Source: a virus | DNA: 64,000 bases | Strand: one strand, 5' to 3' | Virus record (IMG/VR): IMGVR_UViG_3300045131_002298 | Span: 38,742 to 102,741 of that record | In this document: one piece after another, positions 28,001 to 60,908 of the stretch | Position numbering within the stretch: the stretch's first letter is position 1 | How the letters are laid out: each line of letters opens with the position of its first letter | Made by a program: the position numbers and the translations under genes | Notes under the pieces: model-generated | Told to the model about the DNA's origin: nothing | The model's database searches: none | The model's input: the letters and a program-made list of their open reading frames with translations, nothing else

Positions 28001-28406
28001 CATGTTTTATTTATGCGATCTTTTGAATATGAAGATAGTTACTATGGATACCTACCAAAACGTATCTTTTATCCAGGGACTCAGGAAACTTAAAGTAAGA
28101 AGTGGTCCACTTTCTACAGTTACTACTCCTGTTCCTTATATGGAAGCAAAAAGTGCTTATATAGAAGGAAGACTAATGCATCCTAAGAATGAAGTATATA
28201 TAGACGAGTTGCTTCATTTAGAATATGATCCAAAAAAACAAAAGGTGGACCATATTCCCAATAGGCATAATGACACCTGTGATGCTGTAGTGGGAGTGAT
28301 ACATATACTTACACATAAGGTTGCTTCTTACAAAAGAAGCAGAAGAGACGCTAAGGTTACTGACAAGGTGCCTGCACATAGGCAAATAGTTATTAACAAA
28401 CTTTAA
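25083..28406 (+). CDS. terL: terminase large subunit, intein-containing
   Basis: Walker A GATGWGKS; nuclease domain HVDLG..KD, D...DTCDAV; intein at the Walker-B position. Confidence 0.88.
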   Translation: MALENLQVIPLNTAFELVFDVLRENKLSTRDESMLEALVLACPQISDGADAYILKDDLNNFCRNFIQALKENDGSFLYKEKGYKGRLVDIEEFLESKEYMDQKGSVRPVVKYELQNIIERLDNTREVVLTGATGWGKSYLSRALIEYMLYKLSMLHNPQYQYGLAPGSSIVMILQSLSLRLSKKILFDPLLSAFSASPYFTKNFSFNKHVTSELQFPKNIYILPVSGSEMATLGLDVYAGCFLPEQEYVTTEGAFDSLISDVENKNPKIFESNALVQGNKTITQFTGWKPIIKLTFDNGETLICTPDQYLLGEGQEYVKAGEAEGKRILFSNMSTMRKEGHISNYTFKASSQHDFLNLPGTVSGLLLARETYIASAQNRIQNNMSTMWARVWDDFLYSLVKETQYDPTRISREIRSSEIRRSYNEDKRVGEKEYTETEKKFSRLCCKVNDRNRETFTPCPRSNSVKILRSQRETETWRQSFKKMGGIGFRGKEQASCTGKKTITYKSHRKSQIHVYSQKRRYNISTFSFRNSRCSMVRSARCSVGIRKCSVSYGNRRRISRIHPRFYFAFFSYRSKIRLERYAYKTMASYTRYLFSFSHTGYLEGNEKDRNAEILQLYKQKQNKSSKLSGDSSLFNSKRCIRVENLNVIMPVYDLHNVGGSHFFIARTENGFIPVKNCMSELNYFSVVENSKQLTMRGQEDTTYDQASNAYTNLIQRLKSRFQTYGKIPGCLILDSAVHYPGDFLSKKIEEAKWDNQIYVVKHAIWDTLSQDRFSGKRFIVEIGTLDRSSRIIESKKFALPEADLLEVPEEYRSDFERDIETALRDFAGLATGHRRAFMPFKESVTDAYTVYEAYYNGHTLFKEESIVVNDYFVGPWEWDLLIDKEYMKQIAFDKNASFCMHVDLGVSKDRVGLAIGHIQEYKSLPSTSFYSKERNDFTEVLDMDAPVICIDGIIQIRPPQGGEVDFDMLRGFMFYLCDLLNMKIVTMDTYQNVSFIQGLRKLKVRSGPLSTVTTPVPYMEAKSAYIEGRLMHPKNEVYIDELLHLEYDPKKQKVDHIPNRHNDTCDAVVGVIHILTHKVASYKRSRRDAKVTDKVPAHRQIVINKL
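25803..27113 (+). mobile_element. intein in terminase (YAG|CFLPEQ...PVYDL...IPVKN|CMSEL)
   Basis: Cys1; block B-like LICTPDQ; block F VYDL; terminal Asn followed by Cys+1. Confidence 0.8.
26032..27021 (+). CDS. homing endonuclease (2 Zn fingers + PD-(D/E)XK) nested in the +1 frame of the intein
   Basis: CQLC...HL..H.MT...Y twice; SRFE...WEYE...YTPDF...IEVK; own purine-rich RBS (GGAAGGGCAGGA). Confidence 0.8.
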   Translation: MLKPEKQRENESYFLTCQLCGRKVIYLTTHLKQVHNMTSSTYLELFPGSYLHGKPISHRRKTEYKITCQLCGQEFGMISSTHLLKKHNMTPLEYREKYGPLKSEEAIMKTKEWAKKNIQKQKKNSPDFVAKSMIGIEKRLHLAHEATRLKFSDPKERQKHGDKALKRWEELALEEKNKRAAQGRKQLLINHIENPKYMYTRRRGDIISPRSRFEIAVAVWLDLLDVPWEYESVVFPMEIEGEFHVYTPDFILPFSLIEVKSVWKDMHTKQWPLIQDIFSPLVIQATSKEMKKIGMQKFYNYINRNKINQVNFQEIAPYLTLNAVYGWKI

Positions 28407-28421
28407 ATTAAGGAGACAAAA

Positions 28422-28899
28422 ATGGAAAATGTACAAGACAGATTAGAAATTAAAAATAGAGTTTTGGCCCTTAAACAAAAAATAGAAACTTTACCTTCTT
28501 CTCTTGCAGAAGAATTAAAATTGGAGTATGCTTTAATTGAAGACTATATGAGAGATAAATTTTTTCGCTCCAATTTTAGAGCTAGGAAAGTGGAAGGTAA
28601 AAAAATAGGAGGGACCTACCTTGTTGATTAGCAGAGAAGACAGGTGGGCCTCTGTTCTTGAGAATTTGCGTACAGGCGTAGATAGAGGAATAGAATACCC
28701 TAAGAACAGACTTAAACATGTACCGGTTACTATATTAGGAAGAAAAATGGGAATGAAAGAAGCCGCGTGTATTACTGGCCTTCAGACTAAATTTTTTAGT
28801 CAGTATAAGGGACAGGAAGTTCCAGTAGAAGACATAATTACTCAATTAGAAAACAAATGGATGAAAGAAAAAACTAAAATGTTGAGGGCGGGTTTATAG
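28422..28899 (+). other. two small hypothetical genes (28422..28631, 28621..28899)
   Basis: RBS-bearing, coupled ORFs. Confidence 0.55.
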
Positions 28900-28900
28900 G

Positions 28901-29587
28901 ATGAGTATATTATCAAAAGCTATAAGGCGCGCCCTTGCAGGTAAAGACCCAGAGGGAGATATAAAAATAGGTGACATTTTTGGAGATTTAGAGGTTTTAG
29001 GTATAGGGGAGAAAAAAGGCACTAGTCGTCACATTCATTATGTGTGTTTATGTAGGGCCTGCGGAAAAGAAGTTACCATTCCCTCCTATAGATTAAAATC
29101 TGGAGCATCTAAGAGTTGTGGTTGTTCTAGAACCAAACACGGGCATACTAGTAGAATATTTAAAGGCGGAACGCACCCTTACCGCGTGCATGTAGAAATG
29201 CTGAGGCGCTGTAACGACAGCACCCACAGGGGGTTCGAGCGTTACGGGGCTCGCGGTATAAAAGTATGCGATAGGTGGAGCGGAGAAAATGGTTTTGAGA
29301 ATTTCTTTGAGGACATGGGCCCTGCGCCAGAGGGGTACCAACTTGACCGCATTGATGGTACTAAAGGGTATAGCCCGGAAAACTGCAAATGGTCTTCCAT
29401 TTTTGAGCAGAACCGCAACAGGAGGGACAATGTTTGGATAGAATACAACGGAGAGAAGTTAATTCTTCATGATTGGGGAGAAAAATGGGGAGTGTCTGGA
29501 AGTTTTATACAACGTCGTTTAAAAAAGGGCCTTTCTATGCGAGAAATAGAGGAAATTTGTGAATTAAAAAGGAATTTGGGAAAATGA
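28901..29587 (+). CDS. HNH homing endonuclease
   Basis: FGDLEV...CLC..CG, SCGC, RC...YGARGI.VC.RW, LDRID...YSPENCKW. Confidence 0.85.
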   Translation: MSILSKAIRRALAGKDPEGDIKIGDIFGDLEVLGIGEKKGTSRHIHYVCLCRACGKEVTIPSYRLKSGASKSCGCSRTKHGHTSRIFKGGTHPYRVHVEMLRRCNDSTHRGFERYGARGIKVCDRWSGENGFENFFEDMGPAPEGYQLDRIDGTKGYSPENCKWSSIFEQNRNRRDNVWIEYNGEKLILHDWGEKWGVSGSFIQRRLKKGLSMREIEEICELKRNLGK

Positions 29588-59513: not shown

Positions 59514-59539
59514 AAAGCAAAGAATAGAAAGGAAACAAC

Positions 59540-59752
59540 ATGCCAACTTATGAGTATCGCTGCAAAAAATGTGGAAACGAATTTGAAAAAATCCAACGGA
59601 TAACAGAGGCTCCCATAGAACGCTGTAAAAAATGCAGGGGAGTAGTAGAGAGATTGATATCTCAGTCCACCTTTGTCCTAAAAGGTCAGGGATGGTATGC
59701 ATCCGATGACAAAAAAATTGCCTCTTCCTCCTCCAACGATGATTTAGCATGA
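59540..59752 (+). CDS. FmdB-family zinc-ribbon protein
   Basis: MPTYEYRCKKCG.EFE..Q.ITE.P...C..C.G.V.RLIS...FVLKG.GWY. Confidence 0.88.
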   Translation: MPTYEYRCKKCGNEFEKIQRITEAPIERCKKCRGVVERLISQSTFVLKGQGWYASDDKKIASSSSNDDLA

Positions 59753-60342
59753 AAAAACATACTAGCACAGTATTAGGATTAACTATAATATCTATCGGAT
59801 TAATTGCTTCCTTCATAAACCTACTTAACTTATATTACTATCCTATCGGTATCCGTTTCCAGGATATTTTTAGGTATAATGTTGACATTATAGAACCTCT
59901 CTTAAAGGATATTTTTCCTCCAGAGCAAGAGCAGCAAGAACAACTAGAGGTAGAGGATCCATCTGAGATTGATATCATTCCTCCTCAGCGTGTCTACGAA
60001 GGCAGAGCCACACAGGTGGGTCCCGGAGCAGCTAGAGATGAAAGACAAAGGCATCAAGTTTCTAAAAAAGTGTCACCCAAATCAGAGGGTGTGAGCAAAG
60101 CCAAGAAAAGACCAAAACCTGTCCCCGTGGTTGAAGAGAAGAGTGAAGAGAAAGATGTGAGCACTTCTGCACCGGTAGCTTTGGCTAAACCCGCGCTTGT
60201 TTCTGAGCCAGTGGTGACTGCTTCCTTAACAACAAAGTTGATTGCGTATTTTGATATAGAGAAGATACTGAGCTGGGCGGCGAATATTATTACCATTGTC
60301 ACAGGTGTGTTAATAATCCTTCGCAGGAGAAAAGAAGACTAG
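59749..60342 (+). CDS. membrane protein with N- and C-terminal TM segments
   Basis: C-terminal TM followed by RRRK; disordered middle. Confidence 0.6.
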   Translation: MKKHTSTVLGLTIISIGLIASFINLLNLYYYPIGIRFQDIFRYNVDIIEPLLKDIFPPEQEQQEQLEVEDPSEIDIIPPQRVYEGRATQVGPGAARDERQRHQVSKKVSPKSEGVSKAKKRPKPVPVVEEKSEEKDVSTSAPVALAKPALVSEPVVTASLTTKLIAYFDIEKILSWAANIITIVTGVLIILRRRKED

Positions 60343-60428
60343 AAAGCTACATAAGTGTAGGAATACTTGTAGGAATATAGCAGAACACTTAATAAAATTG
60401 AGTGTTTTAGTAGAAAAGGTAAAGTAGA

Positions 60429-60908
60429 ATGTCCTTTTTAGGAATAGAACTAGATATAGATCCGGTGTTTTCTAAAGTATTATACCCTAACTCTCTTTTA
60501 GAAAAACTTCGTTCTGTTATAGTAGCTCATGATAGCTTTAAAGGTATAACTATAGATATAGGTGGGCATACTAATCTTCATAGAGAAGCCTTCTTTGGTT
60601 TTGATGAATGTTTATATGAGAATTGGGAAAGAGTTAGACTTTTGTCAGAGGGGGAAGAGATAATATGTAAAGAGTTTCCTAAGCTTTTACTGGGAGAAGC
60701 TAAGGTTAAAGATTGGTCCACCTATAGATTAAATATATTTCATCCTATTATGGAGTGGAACCCTATAGAGGGAAATGATAGGTATTTAGTATGTTATGCC
60801 CTCAAGTATGCTTATTATAAAATAAACAGAAAAAAAGTAAAAGAGGTTACTGATAATATTTCCAGTGTTGATAACTTTCACCGTCGTTCTATTGTTATAT
60901 GTAAGTAA
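60429..60908 (+). CDS. hypothetical protein ending RSIVICK
   Basis: Shared C-terminal motif. Confidence 0.65.
   Translation: MSFLGIELDIDPVFSKVLYPNSLLEKLRSVIVAHDSFKGITIDIGGHTNLHREAFFGFDECLYENWERVRLLSEGEEIICKEFPKLLLGEAKVKDWSTYRLNIFHPIMEWNPIEGNDRYLVCYALKYAYYKINRKKVKEVTDNISSVDNFHRRSIVICK

Follow-up and report, generated by a model that had tools for sequence, protein, structure and literature searches.

A 64,000-nucleotide stretch of viral DNA (positions 38,742 to 102,741 of IMG/VR record IMGVR_UViG_3300045131_002298, hereafter the window) encodes ten proteins that finish in variants of one short peptide, which we call the tag. The window is the final 64 kb of a 102.7-kb linear contig (G000) from an uncultured lake-water myovirus, and coordinates below refer to the window. 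The strict form of the motif, R-x-[ILVM]3-C-[KR] followed by zero to two residues, ends seven open reading frames (ORFs), designated A, B, D, D2, E, F and G, with the consensus R-x-[IL]-[VIM]-[VI]-C-[KR]. A Cys-less form is found in three further proteins, H, C and the large terminase subunit (TerL). A first-pass annotation of this DNA had quoted ten such C-termini, and all of them were recovered.

The carriers are all encoded on the plus strand. A (49753-50283, 176 aa) has a hydrophobic N-terminal stretch that by eye resembles a membrane helix, a KP/EKP-rich linker and the tag RQIMVCK followed by NV (codons 50254-50274). B (50276-50749, 157 aa) has a body of predicted Hcp/tail-tube fold (residues 1-125), a Lys-rich linker modeled with low confidence and the tag RQIVICR followed by MP (50720-50740). 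Its distant paralogue C (50734-51273, 179 aa) carries the Cys-less tag RSIIVSR (51226-51246) and then eight more residues. D (57843-58193, 116 aa) ends RQIVVCR plus S (58167-58187), its paralogue D2 (58195-58500, 101 aa) RNIVVCK plus NA (58471-58491) and E (58493-58903, 136 aa) RNLVVCK plus E (58877-58897). In F (59097-59513, 138 aa) and G (60429-60908, 159 aa) the tags RNIIICK (59490-59510) and RSIVICK (60885-60905) are strictly terminal. The Cys-less carriers H (33794-34090, 98 aa) and TerL (25083-28406, containing an intein) end RKIVIEK plus ETD (34058-34078) and RQIVINK plus L (28380-28400), the latter behind a basic linker.

The tag is concentrated at protein ends

Enrichment was calculated over the whole 102.7-kb contig, using 131 non-overlapping ORFs (31,618 residues). 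The strict motif occurred seven times and every occurrence was C-terminal, whereas composition predicts 0.033 occurrences in all and 0.0004 at C-termini (Poisson ~4e-28). Shuffling the proteins 2000 times produced at most one C-terminal match, and the reversed motif was absent from the 131 ORFs. When Cys was not required, nine matches lay within three residues of an end, where 0.036 were expected. The tag also emerged, in seven proteins, from an unsupervised count of reduced-alphabet 5-mers over the final 12 residues (shuffle mean 2.8, maximum 4). The C-terminal enrichment over background, chosen beforehand as a test of the first-pass annotation, was thus extreme.

The second residue of the seven Cys-tags is Q (3/7), N (3/7) or S (1/7), and from the last tag residue onward the chains read K, KE, RS, KNA, KNV or RMP. 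Linkers preceding the tag contain 0-16% P and 0-36% K, compared with 4.1% and 6.7% genome-wide; the Pro/Lys-rich linker described earlier is therefore a moderate enrichment in both residues, but not a uniform one among carriers. One further ORF (47572-47844), with RKIMVKR eight residues before its end, was dropped as a carrier. By eye its motif sits in an aromatic/Leu-rich terminal segment unlike the other tails.

The carrier bodies are unrelated apart from two pairs

Searches of Pfam and PHROGs gave no family for any carrier. Comparison of the tail-trimmed bodies by hhalign, together with blastp, showed no relation (probability ≤1.7%) except for D with D2 (94%) and B with C, the latter reaching 38% (E = 3e-4) with a deeper profile. 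The bodies, among which one clear paralogue pair had been noted earlier, thus include two such pairs. A search of the ESM Atlas with E returned sub-threshold clusters only.

An AlphaFold2 (AF2) model of B, built from an eight-sequence alignment, had predicted local distance difference test (pLDDT) values of 85-92 over residues 1-125 and below 50 at residues 126-133 and 138-157. The domain matched known structures by Foldseek (E = 6.5e-7) and by VIA (Z 9-11.3, root-mean-square deviation 2.3-4.2 Å over 92-122 residues, 137 chains at Z ≥8). The VIA matches were Hcp of the type VI secretion system, tube proteins of extracellular contractile injection systems, and phage tail-tube and neck proteins. 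The model thus assigns the B body to the Hcp/tail-tube fold, a predicted beta-sandwich with one flanking helix. Because the tail falls below pLDDT 50 whereas the domain is confident, the tag of B is predicted to lie outside the fold, at the end of the low-confidence linker. The last two strands of B (residues 95-120, WNFTDSE...FSLTLSIRD) also match a segment that a 2826-aa metagenomic protein (P0049) contains in at least 17 copies, each repeat at E ~0.005-0.06; this probably reflects a shared beta-hairpin signature and not homology.

The genes for D, D2, E and F (57843-59513) form a compositional island with a GC content of 0.42-0.44, third-position GC of up to 0.55 and a coding-strand GC skew of about -0.2. 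Their neighbours, the genes for A-C and G included, have 0.32-0.38 GC and a positive skew. This difference in base composition suggests that the D-F cluster may be of separate origin.

Conservation follows the peptide and not the DNA

The tag was compared with its counterparts in a related 98-kb IMG/VR contig (G003), two related metagenome contigs (L035 and L036) and a further one covering TerL only (L066). Among copies within the window the codons vary, as had been noted earlier: AGA, AGG or CGT for R; ATA, ATT or TTA for I/L; GTG, GTC, GTT, ATA or ATG for V/I/M; TGT or TGC for C; and AAA, AAG, AGG or CGT for the final K/R. Each orthologue in the related lineages keeps its tag, the three Cys-less ones included. 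The G003 orthologue of A ends RQIMVCR plus DV, and A is absent from the L035/L036 lineage. Tag codons differed among G000, G003 and L036 at ~17 synonymous and ~9 within-class (V/I/M or K/R) positions, and no change broke the motif. Relative to G003, identity was 89% in the tag, 76% in the 20-residue linker and 67% in the bodies. In H the conserved tail stands beside a strongly diverged linker, and the seven codons of the TerL tail show five synonymous and no non-synonymous changes against G003.

Homologues of B found by HMMER with the B alignment, only 40-55% identical to B, keep the tail PERQI[VI]ICR, and three B-family representatives end in an identical PERQIVICR. The tag is thus retained in two further lineages and in distant B homologues and is not freely lost, and its conservation tracks the peptide, two further points on which the first-pass annotation had staked its proposal. 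Because the tag-codon changes between lineages are all synonymous or within-class, selection acts on the peptide and not on the DNA.

Two rearrangements map to the tag codons. In G003 a D body is joined to a D2-type tail, and in L036 the D2 slot has an unrelated body preceding a D2 tail of identical nucleotide sequence, so the tag is portable between unrelated bodies. Since both events join at the tail, the tag codons serve as in-frame recombination joints for the loss or replacement of cassettes.

Signals for the following gene also lie within or just past the tag. The ATA-TGT of B supplies the ATG of gene C, AAG-GAG and AGG-AGC are Shine-Dalgarno (SD) sequences, and the eight-residue extension of C holds AGGAGG and the ATG of the next gene. 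Residues past the Cys are therefore partly dictated by the ribosome-binding site or start of the next gene. The R-x-I-V-V-C core is not explained by such DNA-level effects, because silent positions vary and the core also occurs where it is not followed by a gene.

The tag is confined to one lineage

An alignment of the AAA+ ATPase encoded in the window retrieved 80 IMG/VR loci. Four full IMG/VR contigs (G005-G008) have ATPases 43-47% identical to it and homologous TerL, capsid and replication genes; they showed no C-terminal motif above shuffles and no homologue of any carrier. No enrichment of a C-terminal motif above shuffles was found in the GenBank phages L338C, RcTiptonus, DLP_5 and LV6, which share TerL and the ATPase, or in the RtcB relatives G001 and G002, and these too lacked homologues of the carriers. 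All of the 39-61 kb region is confined to the lineage of G000 and G003. A word-indexed search of 5.8 billion proteins with G recovered the G003 orthologue cluster only. Of ten IMG/VR matches to a degenerate DNA pattern for R-[QNHK]-I-V-V-C-K, only that in G003 was a true C-terminal tag, and a scan of IMG/VR for the contig encoding P0041 likewise returned G003 only. Because the tag and its carriers are both missing from relatives that share the ATPase, TerL and capsid genes, they are a recent invention of one lineage.

The TerL tail resembles the tag

TerL of this phage has a basic linker followed by AHRQIVINKL. Across the wider clade TerL tails consist of long basic linkers with short basic/hydrophobic ends (RKLRFR, RNIRIRRRG, RRLRIL, RKLRIRGGR), and the TerL of L093, with KTIINK and then RIRFRRK, bridges these to the RQIVINKL of this lineage. 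Tails of more distant GenBank phages are unrelated. The TerL tail of this lineage is much closer to the tag of the accessory proteins than to other TerL tails.

In other phages TerL C-tails bind the portal, and a hexapeptide analogue of the prohead-binding site of T3 is cited in the same source (PMC5389665). In relatives of the phage a portal (568 aa; phrog_12, E = 1.8e-21; L144:17047-18753, minus strand in G005) and an adjoining 853-aa gene are kept, namely in G005-G007, DLP_5, L338C and LV6. To see whether TerL tails of the clade dock on the portal, the final 45 residues of the G005 TerL were co-folded with the portal of that contig; the run, made without controls, scored 0.00 and counts neither for nor against docking. 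The length of TerL varies among close relatives (1107 aa in this phage, 670 aa in G003, 951 aa in L066), consistent with an intein that is present, absent or of different size.

Candidate readers encoded on the contig

The AAA+ ATPase (18716-20320, plus strand), one of the hubs proposed in the first-pass annotation, is a Cdc48/p97-D2-like protein with a single AAA domain and its own N-domain (E = 2e-52 to Cdc48/p97 D2 unfoldases). An ATPase with the same N-domain is present in the tag-less relatives, which argues against this hub. Nothing ties the tag to the capsid either: the carrier genes lie in the accessory arm, and a variant of the tag is carried by TerL, a non-virion protein. A link to heat shock through an RpoH-like sigma factor was also not borne out. 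The sigma-70-family gene (regions 2 and 4; 40061-40825, plus strand) had no tblastn match in G003, where its flanking genes are 96% identical and all tags are kept, and no HSP20/alpha-crystallin match was found on the contig at E up to 10. DnaN (PF00712) was not found on the contig, which is itself incomplete.

A second, acidic type of C-terminal tail was seen in the window. The single-stranded DNA-binding (SSB)-like protein (12998-13879, plus strand) ends DDLNDLL and a conserved 262-aa protein (21615-22403, plus strand) ends DEFEELF. An [ST]-h-D/E-D/E-h-h ending recurs two to three times per locus in many relatives (L072, L079 and others). This looks like a docking motif of the SSB-tail type.

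Genomic context

The contig is 83% complete by CheckV, and PHROGs/Pfam searches underlie both its assignment to a myovirus and the gene identifications that follow. The minus arm encodes a tail sheath (1-2616), an adaptor, the major capsid protein (6188-7144, minus strand), a scaffold-like protein (7176-8267, minus strand) and the prohead protease (8268-8960). The scaffold-like gene sits between the protease and capsid genes, and its product ends GIFGNLRR, which we take to resemble the G-S-L-[KR]-type cargo-loading peptides of encapsulins. Replication and recombination genes of the plus arm include DnaB, primase, the SSB-like protein, a helicase, RecA and nucleases. The same arm encodes the Cdc48-D2-like ATPase, ParB, the intein-bearing TerL, ThyX, Ro60, RtcB, an RNA ligase, the sigma factor and a GT2/methyltransferase, after which small orphan genes fill ~20 kb.

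Directly upstream of A, B and C lies a lineage-specific orphan of 634 aa (47846-49750, plus strand). It is present in every tag-bearing lineage at 51-84% identity and had no match in Pfam, PHROG, PDB or GenBank phages; its AF2 model, all-helical and of low confidence (pLDDT 42.6), was unusable. Two TnpB (IS605 OrfB/Cas12f-like) genes, at 20327-21496 and 51495-52475 (both minus strand), have no counterpart in G003, and the second directly follows the A-B-C cluster. One end of G003 has five tandem copies of a 405-bp unit, each with a 98-aa ORF (reverse-complement coordinates 189-2105; loci L024).

Discussion

The peptide-level selection, the unrelated bodies and the position of the tag outside the modeled fold of B support the proposal, made in the first-pass annotation, of a short linear docking or sorting signal on unrelated cargo. 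We estimate at about one in two the probability that the tag serves for docking or addressing and is read by a single common receptor; it is from these patterns in the sequences that we infer docking and a single reader. The tag would be an exposed peptide, prone to form a beta-strand, with a basic residue at each flank and a flexible linker in front. Its receptor, a phage or host protein, would offer a hydrophobic groove or an open sheet edge with acidic flanks and would read the peptide by beta-strand addition. In this way it could handle unrelated, lineage-specific accessory proteins as one group.

The most economical idea would be that the tag and the TerL tail are read by one common site. 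Since TerL carries the Cys-less tag and TerL tails bind the portal in other phages, whatever binds the TerL tail becomes the leading candidate for the reader, although a tentative one that we think is probably not correct. The tagged proteins would then mimic the TerL tail. In a fuller version, also improbable in our judgment, unrelated accessory proteins, among them the Hcp/tube-fold ones and an apparently membrane-anchored one, would have copied the TerL docking peptide, added a Cys and come to bind the site of TerL, presumably the portal clip, so as to time, block or exploit the packaging vertex, with the tag codons doubling as recombination joints for the acquisition of new bodies.

Several observations weigh against docking to a common receptor or against a role for the TerL site. 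The hub hunt on the contig did not find a common receptor, and the ~70 ORFs run through Pfam/PHROGs included no PDZ, alpha-crystallin or clamp-like domain or other obvious peptide-binding domain. Four consecutive hydrophobic residues between basic ones would also suit generic recognition by chaperones or proteases. The B-family tail is missing in two of eight sequences (P0046 and P0047), through either truncated gene calls or true loss. Three close lineages plus the B homologues make a comparison set too small for tag-reader co-variation. The match in TerL could be due to chance, with two Cys-less C-terminal matches against 0.036 expected (~6e-4 by our Poisson estimate). Neither the portal nor the adjoining 853-aa gene has a counterpart on the G000 or G003 contig, and a search of IMG/VR for the portal of the G000 lineage found none. 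Both contigs seem to break in one common region, which would leave the portal off-contig.

Other explanations of the tag can be set against these data. It might be a shared degron, a C-terminal degradation or unfolding signal for an AAA+ machine (the phage Cdc48-D2-like ATPase or host ClpXP, Lon, FtsH or HslUV) through which the accessory proteins and TerL, a potentially toxic nuclease, would share one limited lifetime. An exposed hydrophobic C-terminus with basic flanks on a low-confidence linker would suit such a role, the phage has its own single-AAA protein with a separate N-domain closest to the Cdc48/p97 D2 unfoldases, and the carriers, small accessory proteins, come from the non-structural arm. 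Known bacterial C-degrons, however, end in non-polar residues at the very carboxylate, whereas these tails end in K/R or in one to two variable residues. Degenerate recognition by a protease would not need so strict a conservation of the Cys and the beta-branched residues, the ORFs searched included no partner protease, and the relatives whose ATPase has the same N-domain have neither a shared C-terminal motif nor the carriers. We consider a degron unlikely. If the tails instead paired with one another as a beta-zipper, with the Cys in disulfides or a shared metal site, the carriers, the Hcp/tube-like B and C included, could form a hetero-oligomeric body without any separate reader. The tails are rich in I, V and C and strongly beta-prone, their single invariant Cys residues could be pooled into such a site, B has the predicted fold of ring- and tube-forming proteins, and the carriers lie in two tight gene clusters. 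But the basic residues at both ends of the tail would repel in register, the three carriers lacking Cys keep the rest of the motif, and TerL is an improbable member of such a body, so that self-association seems decidedly doubtful.

A relic of common descent, in which one tandemly amplified family has diverged everywhere but in a structurally needed last strand, would account for the two tandem clusters and the demonstrable paralogy of D with D2 and B with C. It is very unlikely, since no profile similarity links the other pairs, the proteins differ in length and in predicted architecture (an apparent membrane helix in A, an Hcp-like fold in B), TerL is certainly unrelated, the B tail is predicted to lie outside the fold and the composition of the D-F island differs from that of A-C and G. 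The tag might also be the by-product of a gene-boundary element acting in DNA or mRNA, either as a recombination linker or in the initiation or coupling of translation of the next gene. Recombination inside the tag codons, as in G003 and L036, and the frequent placement of the next start or SD in or just after the tag are what such an element would produce. Against this, variation falls at third and some first codon positions and spares the second, which leaves too little DNA identity for a sequence-specific DNA or RNA signal. The tag moreover keeps to one frame, no downstream start overlaps F, G or TerL, and synonymous changes accumulate freely between orthologues. A gene-boundary element as the whole explanation is highly improbable.

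If docking to a common receptor is correct, the tag provides a handle on orphan function, as one shared partner would serve seven or more proteins. Should that reader be the receptor of the TerL tail, it would represent a new way to regulate the packaging vertex or put it to use. For engineering, the tag would offer a targeting peptide that is both compact and portable, and the case shows how a peptide tag can create in-frame recombination joints for the exchange of gene cassettes. Short address peptides are well established for the T4 clamp, the T7 acidic tails and the T4 capsid targeting sequence (CTS). To our knowledge shared address peptides have hardly been described for the bulk of small orphan phage genes, and literature searches for a described equivalent of the tag found none.

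Several known systems resemble the tag in part. In its spacing, the pattern R-x-I-x-[IV]-x-[KR] within a flexible C-terminal extension agrees with the tails of crystallins and IbpA/B, and an [IV]-x-[IV]-type pattern (I/L-x-V/I) is present in 10/10 tails. The likeness to the I-x-I motif of small heat-shock proteins (sHSPs) noted in the first-pass annotation is thus real as a pattern, but here the middle residue and the Cys are conserved as well. Unlike the tag, the anchoring I-x-I/V motif of sHSPs is variable in its middle residue, and it is carried by the sHSP itself, while the carriers have no Pfam domain; the IPV motifs of BAG3 belong to the same comparison. Beta-clamp motifs offer another parallel: the clamp-binding tail of Pol IV is RQLVLGL, and its Gln is important but not strictly required in clamp motifs (PMC11139829). 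As the tag would be, the clamp motif is a C-terminal peptide displayed by many unrelated clients of a single hub and bound in an extended form, and R-Q-[IL]-V-[VIL] covers the first five Pol IV residues. The terminal hydrophobic anchor of the clamp motif (QL[SD]LF or QLxLxL; F, or L after G) is nevertheless lacking, and every copy of the tag has Cys (or N, E or S) at position 5 and K/R at position 6, counted within the clamp motif. The likenesses to the Pol IV peptide, to the sHSP tail and to generic Hsp70 sites are pattern-level.

The docking tails of TerL in other phages (lambda gpA, T3 gp19) resemble the tag in that a short peptide ends the protein after a flexible linker, and there it mediates docking; we know of no case in which unrelated accessory proteins have copied a TerL tail. 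The HK97 protease has a C-terminal targeting tail. Cargo-loading peptides of encapsulins are likewise C-terminal behind a flexible linker and load unrelated cargo into an HK97-fold shell (PMC8346489 and PMC8802124). They resemble the tag in following a flexible linker at the C-terminus, but their consensus is different, the carrier genes (33.8, 49.7-51.3 and 57.8-60.9 kb, plus strand) are not neighbours of the major capsid gene (6188-7144, minus strand), and TerL is not capsid cargo. The CTS of T4 is removed by the prohead protease. The internal proteins of T-even phages, though highly diverse, have this one short conserved peptide in common, and it directs them to a single phage structure (PMC3012670). 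The CTS is N-terminal and directed to the scaffolding core, whereas the tag is C-terminal, bears no sequence likeness to it and has a variant on the non-virion TerL. In both cases, however, diverse, fast-evolving and lineage-specific accessory proteins share only a short peptide, and the T4 CTS is the nearest described logic to that of the tag.

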